The position numbers and the translations under genes are program-made. DNA of 61,390 nt, the filler included. It is 4 parts of 4 records of this genome, joined end to end, with 100 filler letters (N's around TTAATTAATTAA, not from the genome) between each part and the next. Parts side by side here need not be neighbours in the genome. Positions count along the whole stretch, not along the records: positions 26,362 to 47,192 come from SRR22947725_7843; 3 more parts are not named here. One strand, given 5' to 3'. This document shows, one piece after another, positions 26,362-46,067 of the stretch. The notes beneath the pieces were generated by a model, which did not search any database, was not told the origin of the DNA, and saw nothing but the letters and a program-made list of their open reading frames with translations. How positions within the stretch are numbered: position 1 is the stretch's first letter; each line of letters begins with the position of its first letter.

Positions 26362-27110
26362 TTGGCTGTTCCGGGAACTACGGCTTCAAGGACTTGCATG
26401 GTAATGGAGGGGTCTGAGCCTTGGTATTTATAAACTTGAGTTTCGGGAGTAATGGGGCTGGTATTTTCCAGATAGGTTTGGATTTGGCCCTGACCTTTGA
26501 GTTGAGCAGGATTTTTCATAACTTGCTTAATTTTGTCTTTAGAGATACGAATGCCAGAGTGCATGTTCATGGCTTCGTGGAGAGTTACTTTTTCGACTCC
26601 AGGTGCAAATTTATTCCGATCTAAATCTTTTAGAAAGCTAACATAAGGCTTGTTTAAATCTTCCATGGTTAGATATCCAAGCTGAATGGCACGGCCAAGG
26701 GCGAGGGCCGTATATGATTTAGTGATGGACATTTGATAATGGGGAAGATCGATGCGGCCTCGTTTGTAGTAGGACTCAAATAGTAGTTTTCCTTTATAAG
26801 CGATAAGCAGGCTATCATAAACATCGTGTTTTGAGTTAGCGATTTCTTCGGCTAATTTTAGGATTAAAGCTTTATTTCCACCATCATCTCCTAAGGAACC
26901 CACCTTTATGCCATCTTGTCGATTTTGTGGTGTTGTCGTTATATAAGCTTTTTTTAGATAGGGAACCTTTTTTTCAAGGTTATATGAGGAGTCCTTAGCA
27001 TTGAAATCTGTTACCTCAGGAGCGAGGCCATTGCTTTCATTAGCGCTTAGTGAATGTATCGAGTAAAGCGAAAGTAGGGTGAGTGTGGTGAGTTTTATGA
27101 AGCTTTTCAT
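26362..27110 (-). CDS. Secreted serine hydrolase, beta-lactamase class C-like family (3' truncated)
   Basis: Signal peptide, SLLI...GKLLFESY, S-x-x-K motif (MSITKS), M.SG, Y.Y. Confidence 0.8.
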
Positions 27111-35706: not shown

Positions 35707-38334
35707 GTGCCTGTGAGTAAAAGGACGCCTATTAAAATAAAAACTTCTTCGAGGGTGAATAAAAAATCACCTAAAGCGCCTAAAAATTCTCAGGCGAAAA
35801 TTGTCTTGACTTTACTTGTCATCATTATAGGGCTTTCATCAGTCTTACTAGGCCTTCCAAAGTCAACTTCTATAGCTGTCCTCGATAAAAAAGACAGTCT
35901 CGATATTGATGCTAAAAGTTCTACAGTAATCAAAGAAGAAATCCCCGAGGAAGTGAGCTTTACGGGTTATAAGCTAGATATGAGCAGTATTAAGCCTTTT
36001 ATGGAGAATTACTGCTATAAATGTCATAATAGCGACAAACAAAAAGGGGATGTTCGATTAGATGACCTACCTGTTGAACTACTTACTGATGCGGATGCTC
36101 AGTTATGGCAAGATGCTCTAGATGCGGTAAATATCGGTATTATGGTGCCTGAAGAAGCGAAGAAGGTTCCTAGCTCCGATGAACTCGAAGAGTTTATAGC
36201 CGCTTTAACTTCCGAGCTTCAAAATGCTCGTAAGGCATTCGGCGATTCGGGAGGGAAAGTTGTTCTGCATAGATTAAATCGCCGTGAGTATGTTAATACA
36301 TTATATGATATGCTAGGTGTTACAGTAAATGAAAAATCTTTGCCACAAGATGGTTTGCACCATGGTTTTGATACCGTCGGTCAAAGCCTCTATTTTTCTT
36401 CACTTCATTTTGAGCGCTATTTACAGACTGCAGAAAAAGTTATTAAGCAAATTATTGATAAAGGCCAAAAGCCATCCTTTCAAAAAGTTAAGATTGAAGG
36501 CGAGTGGAAGTCTAAGAAAGCCGATCAACAATTAGCCTGGTTTACTCGTAGAAAGAACAAACTCCAAAAGGAAATGGACTCCGGTAAGACATTTAAAGAA
36601 TTGCGTTACAATTCTCATGAAGAAATGATCAAAGCTCAAGAATACAATCAGTTAGTTTTGGATCGTTATAAAATCTTCAAGAAAGTTCCCGGTCACGATA
36701 CAGGTTTCTTGCCTTACAGAGTGGATCACCCTAATACTCAGCATTTTAAAATTAAGATCCCAAATGTCGAAGTTGAAGGCGATTATGTCCTACGTATACG
36801 CTGTGCTATAACAAATTACCCCGATGGCAAGAAATATAGATATCGTGATATTCAGCCTCTCAATATTAAGGACCAGACGATTAATAACGGTGAACCTGAA
36901 GATTTCTTAAGAGTTTACGATATCTCAGCACCACTGAATCAGCCAGAATACGTTGAATATAAGTTCCGTATGATTCCTGGTCAGCAGCGTGAAATTGATA
37001 TCCACAGCGAACGCGGAGTCAATAATCTTCGCTTGTGGGTCGATTGGGCTGAGTGGAGTGGCCCTCATAATGTCGAATGGCCATCACGTGGATATAAGTC
37101 TTTATTTTTTAAAGGTGAAGGGGCTCCTAAAAATAACGCTTATGCCCGTCAAATTATTGAAAACTTCGCTCGACTAGCTTTTCGAGGCCAGGAGCCGTCA
37201 GAGCTATTCATTGAAACCCTCTATGGAATTTATCAAAAACATCGTCGTGAAGTATCTTTTGAAGAAGCTTTAGTTTTACCTTTGGCGAGTGTTTTGACGT
37301 CGCCAAAATTTATTTATAAATTTGAACAGAAGTCACCATCAGAGAAAGCTCTAAATCAGTTAGAATTAGCTAATCGCCTTTCATATTTCTTGTGGAACTC
37401 CTTACCCGATACAGAACTTTATAATCTCGCTTTAAATGAGGGACTTAAAGGAGAGGGCTTAGCCGCACAGGTTGACCGCATGTTACAGGACGAAAAGTCA
37501 GAAAGATTTATTGAAAGCTTTGTGACGCAGTGGTTAGAACTCGATAAACTCAATGCGCTTACAAGTTTGCCAGGAGATCTGCTCTACAGTGCTCGTCGTG
37601 AACCTATTGAGTTTTTTCGCCATTTACTCAAAAAGAATTTAAGCTATCAGAATTTGGTAGACTCAGACTTCGTAGTCGTTAATCAAACCTTAGCTAAGCA
37701 TTATAAATTGAGTAATGGGGCGAGCCGTGATTTTGTTCCAGTCGCTTTAAAGTCGTCTTCAGAAAGAGGCGGTTTGGTCGGGCAGGCTGCGTTTATGATG
37801 ATGACATCTGAAGGAAAGAGAACATCTATTGTTCAGCGTGGCGCCTGGGTGATTGGGAAATTACTAAATGCAGAACCACCACCGCCGCCACCGAATGTTC
37901 CTCAGTTGGATCCAGGAAAGAATAAGAAACGCTTAAGTGCTTTGGAATTATTGGAGAGGCATAACTCGATGCCACAGTGCCGTTCTTGTCATAAAAGAAT
38001 CGATCCATTAGGCTATGCGCTTGAAAGCTTTGACCATCTAGGCGCTTGGCGTGGCCATAGTAAACACCATAGAATCGATGTCGAAGGGACCATGCCTGAT
38101 GGCAAAAGAACTTTTAAAGGTTTGAAAGAATTTAAAGAACGTTTGATGGAAGACCATGAAAGGATGTTACATGGCTTGGTCGAAGGCCTATTAGTTTATT
38201 CACTAGGGCGCCCATTAAGTTTTAATGATGGTGTTCTAATAGATGATTTAGTGAGTAAGGCCAGTCAAGGTCAGGCCGGGGTTCGTAGTCTTGTTAGAAA
38301 TATTATTTTATCCTCAACATTTAAGAAGAAGTAA
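35707..38334 (+). CDS. Planctomycete-type cytochrome c / DUF1587-DUF1595-DUF1592-DUF1588-DUF1585 protein
   Basis: N-terminal TM, CYKCH, RLNRREY.NTL, GFDT.G, ELANRLSYFLW.S.PD, RGG, PPPPPNVP, CRSCH..IDP.G...E.FD..G.WR. Confidence 0.88.
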   Translation: MPVSKRTPIKIKTSSRVNKKSPKAPKNSQAKIVLTLLVIIIGLSSVLLGLPKSTSIAVLDKKDSLDIDAKSSTVIKEEIPEEVSFTGYKLDMSSIKPFMENYCYKCHNSDKQKGDVRLDDLPVELLTDADAQLWQDALDAVNIGIMVPEEAKKVPSSDELEEFIAALTSELQNARKAFGDSGGKVVLHRLNRREYVNTLYDMLGVTVNEKSLPQDGLHHGFDTVGQSLYFSSLHFERYLQTAEKVIKQIIDKGQKPSFQKVKIEGEWKSKKADQQLAWFTRRKNKLQKEMDSGKTFKELRYNSHEEMIKAQEYNQLVLDRYKIFKKVPGHDTGFLPYRVDHPNTQHFKIKIPNVEVEGDYVLRIRCAITNYPDGKKYRYRDIQPLNIKDQTINNGEPEDFLRVYDISAPLNQPEYVEYKFRMIPGQQREIDIHSERGVNNLRLWVDWAEWSGPHNVEWPSRGYKSLFFKGEGAPKNNAYARQIIENFARLAFRGQEPSELFIETLYGIYQKHRREVSFEEALVLPLASVLTSPKFIYKFEQKSPSEKALNQLELANRLSYFLWNSLPDTELYNLALNEGLKGEGLAAQVDRMLQDEKSERFIESFVTQWLELDKLNALTSLPGDLLYSARREPIEFFRHLLKKNLSYQNLVDSDFVVVNQTLAKHYKLSNGASRDFVPVALKSSSERGGLVGQAAFMMMTSEGKRTSIVQRGAWVIGKLLNAEPPPPPPNVPQLDPGKNKKRLSALELLERHNSMPQCRSCHKRIDPLGYALESFDHLGAWRGHSKHHRIDVEGTMPDGKRTFKGLKEFKERLMEDHERMLHGLVEGLLVYSLGRPLSFNDGVLIDDLVSKASQGQAGVRSLVRNIILSSTFKKK

Positions 38335-38348
38335 AAAGGAAGTTTATC

Positions 38349-39611
38349 ATGAATAGAAGACGTTTTTTACAAAGTGGCGGCTCCTTATTAGCTCTTCCTT
38401 TTTTGGGAAGTCAATTATCCGCTAAAGATAATGTCAAAGCTCCAGTGAGAATGATCTTTTTAGGCTATGGGTATGGACCAACTAGTGATTGGTACCCTAA
38501 GATTAAAGAAACATGCCCTTTAGAAAATTTCACAGCGGCATTGAAGCCTTTACAAAAACACCAAAAAGATATTTCCTTAATTAGTGGTTTACACCATATG
38601 AATCATAAAGCGGTTCATTCTTCTTGCGAAACTTTTCTGACTGGGGCAGATACTAAAAGGACTCCGGGGCGTGCCTTCCATAACAGTATTTCTGTCGATC
38701 AGGTCTTCGCAGAAGCCGTTGGTCAGAATAATCGTTTTTCATCATTACCTTTATCTGATGCGAAAGTCGACGGTTGTGGTAAAGGAGCATCTTTATCTTG
38801 GGATGTCGTAGGGAATCCAGTTATGGGCATTCAGGATCCTTTAGATTTATATAATATGATGTTTGGTAGTGGACTCATCCCCCTTAAAAAGCGCAAAGCT
38901 TTATTGGCGGATCGCCGGAGTGTTCTCGATGCTGTCTTACATGAAGCTGGTTCATTAAATAAGAAGGTTTCTGGCGAAGATAAAGCAAAACTAGATGAGT
39001 ACTTTACGTCTATTAGGAATCTTGAGAATAGACTCACAAAAGAAGTTGAATGGGTCGATACACCACCACCTAAAGTAGACATTAAAGCGCCGCCTTCTCG
39101 CATGACAGGTATGGCCAAGTACAGAACTATGATAGATATGATGGTGATGGCTTTTAAAACAGATCTCACTAGGACCAGTACTTTTCGTATAGGGACAGAT
39201 GAGCTTTTAGCAGAGTGCAATAAAGCTCTTGGATATCGAATGGGTGGCCATGTTATGAGTCACTACAAGCTAAGTGGAGGTCCAGAACTCGAAGTAAGCC
39301 GTATGCGTGACCTTCGTCATTCACAGTTATTAGATTACCTTATAACACAGCTTAAGAATACTTCAGATAGTGATGGCAAAAGCCTTTTTGATAACACTAT
39401 TATTGTTATGGGGACAGGCGTACACACTCATCACAATTTAAAGAACTTACCCATAATTGTCGCTGGACATGGTGGTGGCCTAAAGCAAGGTCAACATATT
39501 GTCGCCAAAGATGGTCGCTTAGCCAACTTATACCTAACACTACTCAAAGCATCAGGAGTCCCTGTTGAACGTTTTAGCGATAGCGATGGCTTTATTGATC
39601 AACTAATATAA
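38349..39611 (+). CDS. DUF1552 family protein
   Basis: MNRRRFLQ.G...LALPFL, ISVDQ, SVLD, D..KLDEYFTSIR.LE, D.TR, G.SLFDNT, H...NLP...AG. Confidence 0.88.
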   Translation: MNRRRFLQSGGSLLALPFLGSQLSAKDNVKAPVRMIFLGYGYGPTSDWYPKIKETCPLENFTAALKPLQKHQKDISLISGLHHMNHKAVHSSCETFLTGADTKRTPGRAFHNSISVDQVFAEAVGQNNRFSSLPLSDAKVDGCGKGASLSWDVVGNPVMGIQDPLDLYNMMFGSGLIPLKKRKALLADRRSVLDAVLHEAGSLNKKVSGEDKAKLDEYFTSIRNLENRLTKEVEWVDTPPPKVDIKAPPSRMTGMAKYRTMIDMMVMAFKTDLTRTSTFRIGTDELLAECNKALGYRMGGHVMSHYKLSGGPELEVSRMRDLRHSQLLDYLITQLKNTSDSDGKSLFDNTIIVMGTGVHTHHNLKNLPIIVAGHGGGLKQGQHIVAKDGRLANLYLTLLKASGVPVERFSDSDGFIDQLI

Positions 39612-39718
39612 TTCAATATCCATCTTATTTTTTTATGTATGTGATGTTAGAGGCTTGTCTTTTACTAAAAAATTGTAAAATATCCAGAAAAAGAAGTATG
39701 CTAATTACTAGTTAGGGA

Positions 39719-40327
39719 GTGGGTATGGAAGCAGATAAGCATTTAACTAGGCAGACTTTACTTGAACGTTTAAAAGTAAAGCGTGATGACCATTCTTGGG
39801 AGGAGTTTGTCCAGTACTACCGTCACTTTATTTATATAATCTGTCGCCGTATGAACCAAAGCCATCACGATGCCGAAGAAATTACCCAAGCTATACTTTT
39901 GAAGATTTGGAAGGCTATTGAAAATTTTGAGTATGACCAAAATAGACGATTTAGGAGTTGGCTATACCAAGTAACAAGAAATGCCGTTCGCGATCATTGT
40001 CGTACAGTTACTCGTCAAAAACAACTCCTTGAGAAAGCCTCAGAATATGAAGTATGGGACCTCGGCGATGACTTTGACCTTCCTTATTTAGAAGAATTAG
40101 CGGAAAAGGAGTGGCAGAATTACCTGACAAATTTGGCTTTGGAACAGGTTAGACCTTATTTTTCAAAGAATGTTATGGATATTTTTACGCGCTTGATTCA
40201 CGGAGCTGAGGCGTCGCCATTAGCGGCAGAATTAAGAATCCCAAGGAATACAGTCAATGTCTATAAGAAGCGTGTTATGAAAAAGCTTAAAGAAGAGATG
40301 TCTAAGTTAAAGTTTGAGCTTAATTGA
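39719..40327 (+). CDS. ECF-type RNA polymerase sigma factor (PVC kinase-associated type)
   Basis: TRQTLLERL...SWEEFV..Y, HDAEEI.Q, RFRSWL..V..N, EW...L...AL, C-terminal HTH ending NTV..YK.RV...L. Confidence 0.9.
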   Translation: MGMEADKHLTRQTLLERLKVKRDDHSWEEFVQYYRHFIYIICRRMNQSHHDAEEITQAILLKIWKAIENFEYDQNRRFRSWLYQVTRNAVRDHCRTVTRQKQLLEKASEYEVWDLGDDFDLPYLEELAEKEWQNYLTNLALEQVRPYFSKNVMDIFTRLIHGAEASPLAAELRIPRNTVNVYKKRVMKKLKEEMSKLKFELN

Positions 40328-40330
40328 ATA

Positions 40331-42211
40331 ATGGACAATGATGGTCGCTCAGAAGAAATATTTTCTAAACTTATTCCCAATTTAAATGATGAGCTTGATG
40401 AAGATACTATTTTCCCTATTTCAGATGAAATATTAGAGCTAAAGTCACGTTATAGGGCAGGCCCTAAGATTGGCTCTGGCGGCATGAAAGATATTTTTAC
40501 CTGTAGCGATAAGCTGACATCTCGCCAAGTTGCACAAGCCCGCTTACATGATAGTAATGATCCAGAAATAGTCGAACTTTTTTTTAAAGAAGCTCGCTTA
40601 ACTGCTCATTTAGAACACCCAAATATCATGCCCCTTTATGACATCGGCTATGATGTTAATGGCGAACCCTACTTTACGATGAAGGTTATTGATGGCCATA
40701 ACCTTACTGACTTTATACAAAATATTAAAGAATTTGGAGAAGTCAATTTTCGAGAGATGATGGATATATTCTTGAAAGTTTGTGACGCAGTTGCTTATGC
40801 CCACTCTAAAGAGATTGTGCATTTAGATTTAAACCCGAATAATATACGACTTGGGCAATTTGGAGAAGTATTGGTCTGTGATTGGGGACTCGCTAAGTAT
40901 ATCGGAGAGGACGAAGAAACACTTACAGACTACTTAGAGTTTAATAATGAGGCGACATTGTATGGGGTTATTAAGGGGACTCCTGGGTATATGGCCCCAG
41001 AGCAAGTTGATATAGAACTTTCAGCTCGTGATCGACAGACCGATATCTATGCACTAGGTGGTGTTATGTACAGTTTACTTTGTTTTGAGGCTCCAATAAC
41101 AGGGGACTTAAAAGATGTACTTAAGCAAACTTTGAATAATGAAATTTTACCTCCTAGTAAATTGAATACCAAAACCCCTAAAAGCCTTGAGGCAGTTGCT
41201 ATGAAGGCCTTATCTCAGAATTCACAAGATCGCTATAAGAATGTAGGGGCTTTACAACAAGATATACGCAACTGGCTTGATGGTTATTCGACATCAGCGG
41301 AGAATCGGTCTTCTTGGAGAGACTTGGCTTTGCTCGTAAAAAGGCATCGTACCTTATTTATATTTGCGAGCTTACTGTTTGTCGCTTCAGGAATATTTAG
41401 TGTAGCGATAGTGATTAAGGAACGTCAGGCAGTTAGTGCTCTAAAGAGGTTTGAACAGGAGCGTTTAGCGAAAGAGGCCGCCGGTCGAGAGGCAGCTCCA
41501 CGTTTAACTCACCTAGCATTATTAGCGTTTAAGAATTACGATTATGAATCAGCAGAAGACATACTGCAACAAGCTTTTGAACGAGATCCGAATTCACAAG
41601 AAGCATGGCAATTAAAGGCGCGCTTTTCATTCTTTGAGCAGAACTTCACTCAAGCTGCTGAGGCTTTAGTAAAAGTTAAGCCTCCATATGAGCACAATGC
41701 GATCAAGAACTTAGTTAGTTATTTTCCTAATCTGCCCAAGCGCTTGTTAACTGCTGAGGAGTTAAAAACTTTATATAAAATGTATGGTGCTAAATACGAT
41801 ATCTTATTTCTCTATAATCGTTCATTTAAGCGCTATAGTCGCCCTCATCAGTTGGTATTATGTAAGACTTTTTTGAAGCTTCAGAATAAAAAAATGAAGT
41901 CATTAAAATTCGATTTTGTAGAAGAGGGCAAGAAGCTTTCATTAGATCTCTCCAAAAATACAAAGCTAGAGTCTGTAGAAGCTTTAGCCCCTCTAATGGT
42001 GACTCATTTGGATATATCAGAGACCCGCATTAATTCTCTTGCAGAGATATCACACTTACCGCTTATTGAGCTTAACTTAAGCCATACTTCACTGCGAGAC
42101 TTTTCAGAGCTAGAAGAGTATTTAGGACTGAAAAAGTTAATCATTTCGGCAGGGCAGGAAACGCGACTTCCATTATTATCTGAAAAAGTCGAAATTATTA
42201 TAGTTGAGTAG
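40331..42211 (+). CDS. Membrane Hanks-type Ser/Thr kinase with an atypical active site, a TM helix, a TPR-like region and C-terminal LRRs
   Basis: GSGGMK, F..EAR..A.LEHPNI, HLDLNPNN, DWGLAK, GTPGYMAPEQ, DIYALG. TM FIFASLLFVASGIFSVAIVI. LRR units LSLDLSKN, LDISETRI, LNLSHTSL. Confidence 0.9.
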   Translation: MDNDGRSEEIFSKLIPNLNDELDEDTIFPISDEILELKSRYRAGPKIGSGGMKDIFTCSDKLTSRQVAQARLHDSNDPEIVELFFKEARLTAHLEHPNIMPLYDIGYDVNGEPYFTMKVIDGHNLTDFIQNIKEFGEVNFREMMDIFLKVCDAVAYAHSKEIVHLDLNPNNIRLGQFGEVLVCDWGLAKYIGEDEETLTDYLEFNNEATLYGVIKGTPGYMAPEQVDIELSARDRQTDIYALGGVMYSLLCFEAPITGDLKDVLKQTLNNEILPPSKLNTKTPKSLEAVAMKALSQNSQDRYKNVGALQQDIRNWLDGYSTSAENRSSWRDLALLVKRHRTLFIFASLLFVASGIFSVAIVIKERQAVSALKRFEQERLAKEAAGREAAPRLTHLALLAFKNYDYESAEDILQQAFERDPNSQEAWQLKARFSFFEQNFTQAAEALVKVKPPYEHNAIKNLVSYFPNLPKRLLTAEELKTLYKMYGAKYDILFLYNRSFKRYSRPHQLVLCKTFLKLQNKKMKSLKFDFVEEGKKLSLDLSKNTKLESVEALAPLMVTHLDISETRINSLAEISHLPLIELNLSHTSLRDFSELEEYLGLKKLIISAGQETRLPLLSEKVEIIIVE

Positions 42212-42225
42212 CTCATTTAGTATAT

Positions 42226-42252
42226 TGTCACCGTTTTATATTTAGCCGCGTA
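42226..42252 (+). promoter_or_regulatory. Putative ECF-type promoter TGTCAC-N17-CGTA
   Basis: TGTCACCGTTT is shared exactly with the site at 44551; lies upstream of a sulfatase start. Confidence 0.5.
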
Positions 42253-42286
42253 TGACTTCTATGAATAAAATTAATAAGGAGTGGTA

Positions 42287-43852
42287 ATGCGTATTTTAAG
42301 TATAGTTATCTGTGTTTTGATTGGTGTTTGTAGTGCAAATGAAAAGATGAATGTCGTTTTATTGACGGTGGATGATATGAATGCCGATTCGATTGGAGCT
42401 TTTGGCTGTAAAGTAAAAGGGACAACACCGAATATTGATAGCTTTGCTAAAGACTCTTTTCGATTTAACTATGCTCACGTTCACGCCACGAGTTGTATTC
42501 CATCGCGAAATGCTATAACGAGTGGGCGCTATCTTTATAACAGCGGAGTCGAAGGCTTTTATACTTTGCCGAAAGATCAGGTGACATTTGAAACCATTCC
42601 CGAAGTGCTGCGTAAAAATGGTTACTTTACGATGATTCGCGGCAAATCTCATCACTCTTATCCGTATGTGCCGTTCCCGGCATTTGATATTAATTTTGAT
42701 GATATTTTGAAAGAGAAAAAAGAAAATATTCGTCATCCCGAAACTTTTTATCGTTACACAAAAATGGGCATAGAGGCAGCAGGGAAAGCGGGTAAGCCAT
42801 TCTTCTTTTCGATGGATATTCACGATCCTCATACAGGCTATTATAATTGGGACAAGAAGAGTTCTAAGCCGGGAATGAATAAGGAAGACAAGGATAACGC
42901 TCCAAGTCGGATTTTTACTGCAGATGAAATTGTCGTCCCTGGATTTTTACCGAGTACGCCTTTGGTGAAGCAAGAGATGGCGGCTTATTATTCTACAGTT
43001 CGCCGTGCCGATGATTCTTTTGGTCAGGTTATTCGCGCTTTGAAGGAAAAAGGGCAGTATGAAAAAACGCTATTTATTTTTTTGTCGGATCACGGGATGC
43101 CAGAGCCTTTTGCGAAAACAGCAAATTATTATCACAGCTCGCATACACCTTTGACAGTTCGTTGGCCAGGATCTACGAAAGCAGGGGCCGTTGATAATGA
43201 TCATATGATTGGTACGATAGACATTTTCCCGACAATACTCGAGGCTCTGGGGCTTAAAGAGATTGCCGGTTTAGATGGCCGTTCTTTTGCTTCTATTCTC
43301 AAAGGAGCCAAGCAGGATGGCCGCGATTATGTTTACACTATGTATGAAGAAAATGTCGGGGGTAATCGTCAGCCTACGCGTTCTATAATTAGCAAGGATT
43401 TCGCTTATATCTGCAATATCTGGTCCGATGGTAAACGCAGATTCTCTTCTGCGACGAAAGGCATGGCCGCTTATGATGAGATGCGGCGCCTAGCGAAGGT
43501 AGATGAAAGGTTTAGTGACCGTTTGCAGCTTTACAATCATCGGGTTCCAGAAGAACTTTACAATTATGAGAAAGATCCAGATGCTCTAAAGAATGAAGTC
43601 GCTAATCCAGAATTTAAACAGACCTTAGCGAAGTTGCGCACAGTTATGCAAAAATTTATGGCAGAGAGTAACGACCCTTTAAAAGAGCTTTTTATTAATC
43701 GTGAAGATAAGCAGAAAGTAGCTGCTCATCTTGCTACCGTAGATGCAGAATCAAAGGTTCGTCGTATGAGTGCCGAGTATTCGCGTAATGGTAAAGCTAA
43801 AATTCGAGAGGATAAAAAGAAAAAGAAAGCTAAGAACAAGTCACAGAAATAG
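42287..43852 (+). CDS. Sulfatase (formylglycine type, sulfamidase-like)
   Basis: Signal peptide, NVVLLTVDD, TPNID, CIPSR....SGRY, DPH, SDHG, EELY...DP....N. Lys-rich C-terminus. Confidence 0.93.
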   Translation: MRILSIVICVLIGVCSANEKMNVVLLTVDDMNADSIGAFGCKVKGTTPNIDSFAKDSFRFNYAHVHATSCIPSRNAITSGRYLYNSGVEGFYTLPKDQVTFETIPEVLRKNGYFTMIRGKSHHSYPYVPFPAFDINFDDILKEKKENIRHPETFYRYTKMGIEAAGKAGKPFFFSMDIHDPHTGYYNWDKKSSKPGMNKEDKDNAPSRIFTADEIVVPGFLPSTPLVKQEMAAYYSTVRRADDSFGQVIRALKEKGQYEKTLFIFLSDHGMPEPFAKTANYYHSSHTPLTVRWPGSTKAGAVDNDHMIGTIDIFPTILEALGLKEIAGLDGRSFASILKGAKQDGRDYVYTMYEENVGGNRQPTRSIISKDFAYICNIWSDGKRRFSSATKGMAAYDEMRRLAKVDERFSDRLQLYNHRVPEELYNYEKDPDALKNEVANPEFKQTLAKLRTVMQKFMAESNDPLKELFINREDKQKVAAHLATVDAESKVRRMSAEYSRNGKAKIREDKKKKKAKNKSQK

Positions 43853-43878: not shown

Positions 43879-44427
43879 TTAGAGCTTTTTTGCGAAGTTT
43901 TTATCGACTTTAAGTAATTCCGCAAAACTTGAGACTTGTTGATGTTTGCAAAGTTCCAAGCCTAAACGAGCACAGGCAAGTGCATCGGATGCGGCGTTGT
44001 GGTGCTGAAGCTCAAAGTTAAAGTGCTGACAAAGAGTGTCTAGTTTGTGATTGTAGTGTTGTGGCCAAAGTTTCTTAGCCATACGCATGGTACAACTATA
44101 CGTTGCTTGGGGTTTTTGCAGACCGTAAGCTTCGAGGGTTTTGCGCAAGACGCTCATGTCGAAAGCGGCGTTGTGAGCGATTAGAACTCGGTCTTTTATA
44201 TATTCAGCGATCTCTGGCCAACTTTGATCAAAAGTGGGCTTGTTGTAGACATCTGCCATAGTAAGTCCATGAACCATAGTGTTCATATAGTCAAAACCGC
44301 CGATAGGCTTAAATAACCAATAGTTAGTCTCGAGAATCTGCTGATTGTCAATGAGACTGACGCCTAAAGCACAGGCACTGTTTCTTTGGGAGTTGGCAGT
44401 TTCGAAATCGAGTGTTGCGACTTTCAT
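43879..44427 (-). CDS. DEDDh 3'-5' exonuclease (DnaQ/PolC-epsilon-like)
   Basis: LDFETAN, AHNAAFD, CT, HHNAASDA.AC. Confidence 0.92.
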   Translation of the reverse strand: MKVATLDFETANSQRNSACALGVSLIDNQQILETNYWLFKPIGGFDYMNTMVHGLTMADVYNKPTFDQSWPEIAEYIKDRVLIAHNAAFDMSVLRKTLEAYGLQKPQATYSCTMRMAKKLWPQHYNHKLDTLCQHFNFELQHHNAASDALACARLGLELCKHQQVSSFAELLKVDKNFAKKL

Positions 44428-44578: not shown

Positions 44579-44630
44579 AGAACTGAGCAGATAAGAAATT
44601 AACTCTAATTATTTGCGAGGAATTTATATT

Positions 44631-46067
44631 ATGAAATGGCTGACATTTTTCTTTTGTCTTCTCAGTGGTCATTCAGTATTTGCTGATAAGCCAAATATTA
44701 TTATCATTATGGCAGACGACATGGGGGCGGAGTGCATTGGCGCTCATGGAAGCTTAGATTACAAAACCCCTCATCTTGATGCTATGGCCAGTCGCGGTCT
44801 GAAATTTAACAATTGTCACTCTATGCCGATATGTACGGCTTCTCGTGTAAAAATGATGACAGGTCGTTACAATTTTAAAAACTATCAAGGTTTTGGCCTT
44901 TTGCCTTCGTCAGAGACGACCTTCGGCACACTTATGAAAAATGCCGGTTACACTACTTGTATGACAGGCAAGTGGCAGCTCGGAGGAGATTCAAAGTCAC
45001 CACATGAATTTGGTTTTGATGAGTATTGTCTACTCAATGGTATAGTCCCCAAAGAAAACTACGATCGGAGTAGTCGAGGAAGAGAACGTTATTGGGGGAA
45101 GCCAGCAGTCGTCGCCAATGAAAAACTCTATGAATCAGATGAGAATTTTGGCCCAGATATGATTTCGGAGTATGCCGTTAACTTTATCAAGAAACGAAAA
45201 GATAAACCATTTTTTCTTTATTATCCGATGGTGTTGCCTCATTCGCCATTTGCACCGACTCCCTTATCGAAAAGTGGCGATAAAACTGGCAAGAAGATTA
45301 GTGAACTAAAGTACTTTCCAGACATGGTGCAGTATGTAGATGTCTTGGTCGGTCGTGTTATTAAGGCCCTTGAAGATAGCGGTCAGCGCGAAAATACCAT
45401 CGTTATGTTTACTGGAGATAACGGTACGACTTATCCTGTAAATATCACCAAGGCTTCAGCACAAGATTTGGCCATACTTTATACAGGAGGTCATAAAGCA
45501 GGAGCAGGGAAAGAAGGGCCTATAACAAATACGACTTACGGTAAGGTTCCCGGGGGAAAGGATCTTATGAAAAAGCGGGGTACACATGTACCTATGATTG
45601 TCGAGTGGCCTAAGTATAACGACTCCTATAAAGGGGCGAGACATAGCGTTGATGACCTTGTTGACTTTACGGATTTTATGGCGACCATTCTCGAACTTGG
45701 CGGTACTACCTCACACGGAGACGGAGTGTCTTTTGCTAAGCGTTTAAAAGGCGGAGCCGCTTCTACAAGGGAGTTTATCTTTTGTCATTATTGGTATTTC
45801 GGCCGGGATGCCAGTCGCGGTCGAGACGCAATACACGATGGTCGTTGGAGACTCTATAATAATGGTGACTTTTTTGACACCCAAAAAGATCCAGAGGAAG
45901 CGTTTGCATTAGCCGAAGATACTCTTTCACAAGAAATTCTTGAAGTTAAAAATGAGTTAGCGGCTCACTATACCAAGTTGCGCCAACTACCTCTTCCCAA
46001 TGAATTCCATACGGCTATGCCGAAGCCCGTCAAGAAGAAGAAATCTAAGAAAGGAAAGAAAAAATGA
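44631..46067 (+). CDS. Sulfatase (arylsulfatase A-like)
   Basis: Signal peptide, KPNIIIIMADDMG, CTASR...MTGRY, GKWQLG, PH.P, GDNG. Lys-rich C-terminus. Confidence 0.93.
   Translation: MKWLTFFFCLLSGHSVFADKPNIIIIMADDMGAECIGAHGSLDYKTPHLDAMASRGLKFNNCHSMPICTASRVKMMTGRYNFKNYQGFGLLPSSETTFGTLMKNAGYTTCMTGKWQLGGDSKSPHEFGFDEYCLLNGIVPKENYDRSSRGRERYWGKPAVVANEKLYESDENFGPDMISEYAVNFIKKRKDKPFFLYYPMVLPHSPFAPTPLSKSGDKTGKKISELKYFPDMVQYVDVLVGRVIKALEDSGQRENTIVMFTGDNGTTYPVNITKASAQDLAILYTGGHKAGAGKEGPITNTTYGKVPGGKDLMKKRGTHVPMIVEWPKYNDSYKGARHSVDDLVDFTDFMATILELGGTTSHGDGVSFAKRLKGGAASTREFIFCHYWYFGRDASRGRDAIHDGRWRLYNNGDFFDTQKDPEEAFALAEDTLSQEILEVKNELAAHYTKLRQLPLPNEFHTAMPKPVKKKKSKKGKKK

Follow-up and report, generated by a model that had tools for sequence, protein, structure and literature searches.

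Kinase and sigma factor genes of the locus

The stretch of DNA analysed here (hereafter the window) is 61,390 nucleotides long, filler included, and joins four parts from four records of one genome. The part from record SRR22947725_7843 (positions 26,362 to 47,192) carries a gene for a receptor Ser/Thr kinase and, directly upstream on the same strand, a gene for an extracytoplasmic function (ECF) sigma factor (Table 1). The window holds one kinase and one sigma factor of these two families, and no more. The sigma factor scored 80.7 bits against the sigma70-ECF model TIGR02937 (cutoff 42.9). The ATG at 39725 is a likelier start than the listed GTG at 39719, as homologues begin there, and the TGA stop codon (40325-40327) ends 3 nt before the kinase ATG. 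A promoter and terminator scan of positions 39400-42500 gave six promoter-like sites, against 8.4 expected, and no terminators.

The window kinase is predicted to be a single-pass receptor with the kinase domain in the cytoplasm, a transmembrane helix, and a TPR/LRR-like part outside, as indicated by its Pfam kinase and TPR domains and the lone transmembrane helix. This sole helix is marked by the highest 19-residue Kyte-Doolittle window (residues 344-362, mean 2.59). The Pfam scan of the window kinase gave no LRR match and no accessory domain of the type found in WNK (With No lysine) kinases; a relative, P0105, matches LRR_4 (E 5.8e-07). The nearest relative, P0001, is 67% identical and can be aligned to the window kinase from residue 1. 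Between the kinase domain and the membrane lies a juxtamembrane motif, G-[FY]-A-T-x-A-E-N, in which G318, T321 and A323 are found in 78 of 79 aligned rows and E324 in 77. T321 and E324 are among the alignment columns that separate the clade described below from its canonical relatives. A role in autophosphorylation or docking is conceivable for the conserved Thr321.

The AlphaFold2 model of the kinase domain had a predicted local distance difference test score (pLDDT) of 87.5, with strands at residues 41-50, 53-60 and 65-72. PknB of Mycobacterium tuberculosis was the top PDB sequence match (1.4e-34, about 30% identity) and was ranked first by both Foldseek and VIA among the solved folds listed; VIA-align to PknB (1mru_B) gave a Z score of 32.6 and a root-mean-square deviation of 1.5 over 256 residues. 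The best PDB matches by sequence and fold were PknB, StkP and PknA. The PF00069 match, the PknB sequence match and the fold ranking place the window kinase among Hanks-type, PknB-like kinases, with a score of 207 bits against the NCBIfam model PknB_PASTA_kin, below its cutoff of 450. The fold matches listed (PknB, CaMK, DAPK and similar kinases) include no WNK entry, which carries no evidential weight.

Active site of the window kinase

Two Hanks-type hallmarks are absent from the window kinase: the beta3 lysine, replaced by Ala70, and the catalytic-loop lysine, replaced by Asn168. The N-lobe reads KIGSGGMKDIFTCSDKLTSRQVAQARL (residues 46-72). When aligned to M. tuberculosis PknB with HMMER, GSGGMK falls on GFGGMS and VAQA on VAVK, and in the AlphaFold2 model K53 begins strand beta2 and A70 lies within beta3. 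By way of GxGxxG and Kannan et al. 2007 (PMC1821047), K53 and A70 correspond to positions 55 and 72 of PKA. The window kinase thus carries the WNK hallmark, a lysine at the third-Gly position without a beta3 lysine. The alphaC glutamate (E87), D166, N171, D184-W-G and APE (residues 222-224) are all present. These results bear out the residue-level reading in a preliminary description of the segment 40469-40888 (Ile47 through Gly186 of DWG), made from the sequence alone. It had reported the replacement of the beta3 lysine by A70 in VAQA, a lysine at the last Gly of GxGxxG, the non-RD loop HLDLNPNN with Asn for Lys, and otherwise intact catalytic residues. The spacing between K53 and the beta3 position, which it had described as that of WNK, is 17 residues here, as counted from the sequence, and the same in WNK.

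Table 1 Features of the window at and around the kinase gene
Feature	Position	Strand	Evidence or remark
ECF sigma factor gene	39719..40327	+	Sigma70_r2 E 1e-18, helix-turn-helix (GerE) match
N-terminal TRxTLLxR stretch of the sigma factor (residues 1-12 from ATG 39725)	39725-39760	+	alignment A2 of 34 sigma factors
Receptor Ser/Thr kinase gene, 626 aa	40331..42211	+	open reading frame, Pfam and hydropathy
Protein kinase domain (Pfam Pkinase, residues 41-303)	40451..41239	+	PF00069 E 1.9e-34
Lys53 codon AAA, third-Gly position of GxGxxG, first residue of beta2	40487-40489	+	aligned to PknB Ser23
Ala70 codon GCC, canonical beta3 (VAIK) lysine position	40538-40540	+	aligned to PknB Lys40
Catalytic loop HLDLNPNN (H164-N171), non-RD	40820-40843	+	Asn168 in place of catalytic-loop Lys
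Asn168 codon AAC	40832-40834	+	sequence
DWG (DFG equivalent), Mg-binding Asp184	40880-40888	+	D184-W185-G186
Juxtamembrane motif G-[FY]-A-T-x-A-E-N (residues 318-325; window copy GYSTSAEN)	41282..41305	+	alignment A1
Single transmembrane helix (residues ~341-363), KRHR on kinase side	41351..41419	+	Kyte-Doolittle
TPR region, extracytoplasmic part (residues 394-454)	41510..41692	+	TPR_19 E 9.5e-06, TPR_14 E 2.4e-05
C-terminal LRR-like repeats (residues ~535-626), weak assignment	41933..42208	+	LxxLxL-type repeats by eye
Sulfatase	42281-43852	+	PF00884 E 1.8e-40
DEDDh/RNase T-type exonuclease, between sulfatases	43879-44427	-	domain scan
Sulfatase	44613-46067	+	PF00884 E 4.1e-48

The lysine swap as a family trait

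The 120 best relatives of the window kinase, taken from a collection of 5.8 billion proteins, were 41-67% identical to it, with one at 33%; those with names belong to Lentisphaera marina, L. profundi and metagenome-assembled genomes of Lentisphaerales. In a MAFFT alignment of these and the window kinase (121 sequences), position 53 is Lys in 120 and position 70 is Ala in 118. E87, H164, D166, N171 and DWG (184-186) are each found in all 121 sequences, L165 in 116, and K168 in 120, the sole exception being the window kinase itself.

A family hidden Markov model was used to score positions 53 and 70 in all kinase domains of the collected proteins and loci. The 610 domain matches comprised 598 distinct sequences, of which 539 were readable at both positions. 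Lys53 without Lys70 (hereafter K53-type) was found in 274 domains and the reverse (canonical) in 261; four domains had neither lysine and none had both, a split that goes far beyond chance. Each subset of the collected domains repeats this pattern, and the four domains with neither lysine are outliers outside the K53-type clade. Position 70 of the K53-type domains is Ala in 267, Gly in three, Val in three and Thr in one. The preliminary description had named co-variation of GGMK with loss of the beta3 lysine as one check on its reading, and the counts show this co-variation.

Of 295 alignment columns, 53, 70 and 165 separate K53-type from canonical domains best, column 165 reflecting a change from HRD to HLD; next in order are a Cys that precedes DWG and an activation-segment Lys. 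DWG is common to the K53-type kinases and their canonical sister kinases. All of 205 K53-type domains have E87, H164, D166, N171, D184, W185 and G186, while L165 is found in 197 and K168 in 204 (the exception is again the window kinase), and this conservation holds across proteins only 40-50% identical. The canonical relatives are looser (D166 in 78 of 85, D184 in 75 of 85). The protein that the preliminary description had treated as a single odd case is a member of a large family of the Planctomycetes-Verrucomicrobia-Chlamydiae (PVC) group, with 56 copies in one Lentisphaera genome. The three oddities it had pooled come apart in the same comparison: GGMK/VAxA and HLD define the family, and the change of Lys168 to Asn (K168N) is peculiar to the window copy.

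Many of the best-scoring canonical relatives (P0121-P0146 and similar) are proteins of 800-2400 amino acids with two to four tandem kinase domains. The catalytic residues of some of these domains are degraded, with pairs such as S/E, S/I and A/Q at positions 53/70. Degenerate copies were also seen among the K53-type domains. One L. marina paralogue (L159, 1402-3264, + strand; G001:C2, about 1356027-1357760) has K53/V70 with K166, S168 and E184, and is likely a true pseudokinase within the clade. Downstream of an intact kinase-sigma pair, L012 (6966-8008, + strand) carries a K53-type copy that is frameshifted and fragmentary; it has V70 and N168, with AWG in place of DWG, which indicates a decaying paralogue.

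Origin and distribution of the K53-type clade

The trait columns were removed before all tree building. In a FastTree tree of 128 domains, all 49 K53-type rows fall on one side of one branch (one change of state, support 90). For 68 of those 128 rows, a quick IQ-TREE search placed all 30 K53-type rows together (SH-aLRT 94), and a careful search also kept the 30 together as a clade, with UFBoot 100 and SH-aLRT 94; all 200 bootstrap trees (100%) show a single change of state. The clade branches from within canonical GxGxxG/VAxK/HRD/DWG kinases, which come from Verrucomicrobiota, Myxococcota, Acidobacteriota and Planctomycetota. These trees indicate that the lysine swap arose once, inside bacterial PknB-like kinases. 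The nesting among bacterial canonical DWG kinases, together with PknB, StkP and PknA as the closest solved matches, argues that the likeness to WNK is convergent and not by descent; the tree rows include no eukaryotic WNK sequence. The preliminary description had left a convergent WNK-type kinase and a pseudokinase acting as scaffold or anti-sigma side by side. The former is favoured by the perfect co-variation, the single origin, the invariant catalytic residues and the PknB-like fold; the latter is weighed below.

In a sample of 80 loci from GTDB species genomes, 15 were K53-type and 65 canonical. The K53-type loci are from records named as Lentisphaera, Lentisphaeria, Lentisphaeraceae, Victivallis/Victivallaceae, Pontiella/Pontiellaceae, Chthoniobacter, Verrucomicrobiaceae, Roseibacillus and unclassified Verrucomicrobiota; the clade covers the phyla Lentisphaerota, Kiritimatiellota and Verrucomicrobiota. 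None of the 20 loci from records named as Planctomycetota groups was K53-type, all being canonical; this sample is small and does not establish absence. The genome of Lentisphaera marina (which holds locus L001) has 86 readable kinase domains, 56 K53-type and 30 canonical. The genomes of four other K53-bearing lineages gave between one and 11 strong matches, counted irrespective of the K53 state. Two L. marina kinase loci have transposase (DDE_Tnp_1_2) and integrase-core open reading frames (ORFs) next to them (L081, 4552-4992, - strand; L104, 3-539, + strand), which may bear on the expansion of the family.

Partner sigma factors

An adjacent sigma factor of the matching family accompanies 11 of the 15 K53-type GTDB species loci. 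In L. marina, a sigma factor lies in the locus of 45 of the 56 K53-type kinases, compared with three of the 30 canonical ones. The L. marina genome encodes 54 sigma factors of the matching family at E <= 1.7e-55, after which there is a gap to 4.3e-36. The window sigma factor keeps 14 of 14 family-invariant residues.

The 34 partner sigma factors aligned share TRxTLLxR near the N-terminus, in which Thr8 is invariant and position 11 is Thr or Ser. The motif lies in a low-confidence tail immediately before the first helix of the sigma factor model, and ordinary ECF sigma factors of L. marina match the partner-sigma family model only from about position 10-30 on. In region 2.2 the partner sigma factors have the consensus D-x-E-D-L-x-Q, which reads HDAEEITQ in the window sigma factor. 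As the acidic region-2.2 motif is kept, any control by the kinase must, judging from the alignment, differ from the mechanism of the ECF43 group, in which this region is the phosphorylated one.

Asn168 and selection on the window copy

The AAC codon for Asn168 is unchanged in contigs of three sequencing runs. Contig X1 (40703-40962) differs from the window at 11 of 260 positions and keeps Asn168; contig X3 (40620-40845) reads AAC at codon 168; and contig X4 (40805-40990), 186 nt long and identical, comes from an RNA library in which DNA may be present. The Asn168 substitution is therefore real and not a sequencing error, and is common to strains about 4% apart. Among the 274 K53-type domains, other non-Lys residues at position 168 are found only in the frameshifted L012 fragment and the degenerate L159 copy. 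Comparison with P0001 (67% identical) suggests that K168N arose after the split from this relative. In JGI metagenomes, the best match to the window kinase was 52% identical.

The population differences listed number 28, of which 19 are synonymous; within kinase residues 36-330 seven are synonymous and one is non-synonymous, which are small numbers. The end branch of the window kinase in the IQ-TREE tree is 0.32, against a median of 0.53. These patterns indicate that the gene is under constraint and not decaying.

Neighbouring genes

Upstream of the sigma-kinase pair, positions 35707-39611 on the + strand encode an 875-aa protein with PSCyt1, PSD3, PSD5, PSD4, PSCyt3 and PSD2 domains (DUF1587/1595/1592/1588/1585), followed by a 420-aa DUF1552 (HXXSHH) protein. 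Such a PSD/PSCyt and DUF1552 gene pair is typical of Planctomycetes-like genomes. Downstream lie two sulfatase genes with an exonuclease gene between them (Table 1). A similar context is seen around the 30 best L. marina loci (67 ORFs scanned): ten have a sulfatase among the flanking ORFs, and eight more are flanked by glycoside hydrolases, carbohydrate esterases or sugar transporters. Control of polysaccharide-use genes by the kinase and sigma factor would fit this neighbourhood, which is no proof of it.

Comparison with known systems

In WNK kinases the lysine is at PKA position 55, the third Gly, and Kannan et al. 2007 describe WNK as the only functional family of eukaryotic protein kinases without K72 (PMC1821047). 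According to a 2023 review (PMC10211241), mutation of the beta2 lysine abolishes the activity of both WNK1 and POMK, and WNK, too, fitted the sequence definition of a pseudokinase before its activity was shown. The K53-type kinases resemble WNK kinases such as WNK1 in the missing beta3 lysine, the lysine at the third Gly and the 17-residue spacing, and in both the alphaC Glu and the catalytic Asp, Asn and metal-binding Asp are kept. They differ in their separate origin among bacterial PknB-like DWG kinases and in having HLD, whereas WNK has HRD (R348; PMC1821047). The window kinase differs further in its predicted architecture, that of a receptor in the membrane whose outer part is TPR/LRR-like, and in its ECF sigma factor partner.

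POMK (SGK196) is another case of independent lysine migration, in which the VAIK lysine is absent and the beta2 lysine is required (PMC10211241). However, the DFG and HRD equivalents of POMK have moved as well and its substrate is a sugar, whereas the K53-type kinases are otherwise canonical in their motifs and their substrate is likely a protein. In the CAK-chloro subfamily of choline/aminoglycoside-type kinases, the positive charge has likewise moved from position 72 to 55 (M72/R55), and Kannan et al. 2007 called this a second invention of the WNK solution (PMC1821047). Those are small-molecule kinases with Arg instead of Lys and with E91 lost, while the K53-type protein-kinase core is otherwise intact. 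The window kinase shares with M. tuberculosis PknB its fold, about 30% of its residues, a cytoplasmic N-terminal kinase domain and one transmembrane helix, but PknB has the beta3 Lys40, Ser at the third Gly, HRD, DFG and outer PASTA domains.

The gene arrangement recalls the ECF43 systems EcfP/PknT of Vibrio parahaemolyticus and EcfK/PknS of Xanthomonas citri, in which a gene for a transmembrane Hanks-type receptor kinase also lies beside an ECF sigma factor gene and direct phosphorylation activates the sigma factor (PMC13147305, PMC8999054). In ECF43 sigma factors, the only kinase-controlled ECF sigma factors with experimental work behind them, QTTA replaces the acidic DxxD of region 2.2 and phosphorylation takes place there (PMC13147305, PMC8999054). 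In contrast, the partner sigma factors of K53-type kinases keep D-x-E-D..Q, and PknS has been described as typical of Hanks-type kinases, unlike the kinases here with their relocated lysine. Reviews mention other kinase-linked ECF groups with a DAED-like motif, namely ECF59, 61, 62 and 217.

The literature searched describes no bacterial Hanks kinase with a relocated lysine; the supplementary tables of the serine/threonine kinase (STK) atlas, those of pseudokinase surveys and those accompanying the ECF reclassification (PMC7826278) lay outside that search and may list the family. The bacterial STK atlas preprint (10.1101/2025.01.12.632604) contains no mention of Lentisphaer, Planctomyc, PVC or sigma, and WNK appears in it only as a comparison. 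What appears to be new here is a WNK-style ATP site in a bacterial Hanks receptor kinase coupled to an ECF sigma factor, with a catalytic mechanism that we infer from sequence.

Proposed mechanism and alternative explanations

The invariant catalytic residues and the precedent of the beta2 lysine in WNK1 and POMK suggest that the K53-type clade is made up of active kinases that use K53 to hold the ATP phosphates. We propose that the ATP-anchoring lysine would have been relocated in this clade from beta3 (VAxK to VAxA) to the third glycine of the glycine loop (GxGGMK), accompanied by the change from HRD to HLD. K53 would reach under the glycine loop, where it would anchor the ATP phosphates and also pair with Glu87. 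An outside signal would turn the kinase on, probably a glycan or envelope cue, because sulfatase and glycoside hydrolase genes adjoin. The kinase would then control its partner sigma factor, most likely through phosphorylation, with the invariant Thr8 and the Thr/Ser11 of the flexible N-terminal tail as candidate phosphosites. The window copy, with K168N, would be a still-functional enzyme, possibly a slower one, because in PKA the catalytic-loop Lys helps to hold the gamma-phosphate. In its general form, a single-origin PVC clade of active WNK-style receptor kinases that control ECF sigma factors, with a functional window copy, this explanation is the one that we somewhat favour.

Several points weigh against this explanation. 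The window kinase falls under the common sequence definition of a pseudokinase, in that it has no beta3 Lys. Its catalytic-loop Lys, which is kept by 204 of 205 relatives, is missing as well, so that the activity of the window copy may be far below theirs or nil. The sole hint of transcription, the identical 186-nt contig that is possibly DNA, is weak. No sigma factor lies near the kinase at four of the 15 K53-type species loci and at 11 of the 56 L. marina copies. The ECF43 mechanism, the one proven case of sigma factor activation by a Hanks kinase, is not transferable to the partner sigma factor, which keeps the acidic DxED motif, and the assignment of Thr8 and Thr11 as phosphorylation sites is a guess from conservation.

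These points lead to three alternatives. The clade may be active and the window copy a new pseudokinase, K168N crippling phosphotransfer, so that the protein acts without catalysis, for instance in holding or releasing the sigma factor like an anti-sigma factor, or is being lost. The rarity of Asn168 (one of the 205 K53-type domains), its confirmation by the contigs, and the company of the frameshifted L012 fragment and the degenerate L159 copy as the only others without Lys at this position favour this view. However, all other catalytic residues of the window copy are intact, Asn168 is kept in contig X1 despite the 11 differences, and the end branch is not long. The ratio of seven synonymous differences to one in the kinase core also speaks for constraint, although it would hold for a non-catalytic scaffold too. 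The truly decaying copies, L159 and L012, have lost several residues or the reading frame, unlike the window copy. We regard this alternative as unlikely, though it deserves the most attention of the three. It is more doubtful, and in our view improbable, that the whole clade consists of pseudokinases that perhaps bind nucleotide without phosphotransfer and regulate the sigma factor by binding, as a membrane-anchored counterpart of an anti-sigma factor. None of the 274 clade members has kept the beta3 Lys, HRD has become HLD, the near one-to-one genomic pairing with a sigma factor family resembles that of sigma/anti-sigma pairs, and several bacterial pseudokinase families are reported to keep some motifs (PMC12599244). 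Yet E87, D166, N171 and D184 (each 205/205) and K168 (204/205) are kept more tightly than in the canonical relatives, the lysine was gained exactly where catalysis is rescued in WNK1 and POMK, and the beta3 Lys is never lost without a gain of K53, save in the four outliers outside the clade.

K53 may also be no functional replacement at all, with ATP held by other basic residues, or metal-independently as proposed for ULK4-like pseudokinases, and K53 used for substrate contact or regulation. The candidates would be R65, invariant in 121 of 121 sequences, and position 69, which is often Lys (41 of 121). Both were rejected as alternative ATP anchors: R65 is about equally conserved in relatives with a beta3 Lys (80 of 85), which indicates no compensation, and position 69 is unconserved (M 53, K 41, Q 10 of 121). 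Moreover, columns 53 and 70 are the top two discriminators of 295 and their states are strictly mutually exclusive, and we consider this alternative highly improbable. As an addition to the WNK analogy, a cavity left by the missing beta3 lysine might bind an anion or small ligand, like the chloride site of WNK1, which is much less likely than the active-kinase explanation itself.

The active-kinase explanation may be stated in full as follows. An active clade of PVC receptor kinases would have independently reinvented the WNK solution through a single move of the lysine out of beta3 into the glycine loop, with HRD changing to HLD alongside. It would form a one-kinase-one-sigma system with a dedicated ECF sigma family that replaces anti-sigma factors, with about 55 pairs in one Lentisphaera genome, and would sense glycans or envelope cues. 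The sigma factor would be activated elsewhere than at the region-2.2 Thr of ECF43, perhaps at Thr8, and the window copy would be a natural K168N variant. We hold the chances of this joint statement being correct as a whole to be about even.

Significance

If this explanation is true, the K53-type clade would be a third, independent and very large bacterial case of a migrated charge, those known besides WNK being POMK and one subfamily of small-molecule kinases, and rewiring of the ATP site would be a repeatable evolutionary solution. With hundreds of sequences and 56 copies in one genome, the clade would offer a comparative set for the changes that go with the swap, such as HRD to HLD and the Cys before DWG. 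Automated pipelines in which absence of the VAIK lysine marks a pseudokinase would classify all of the clade wrongly. The kinase-sigma pairs also point to a major unstudied system of sigma factor control in marine polysaccharide degraders, unlike the ECF43 paradigm.

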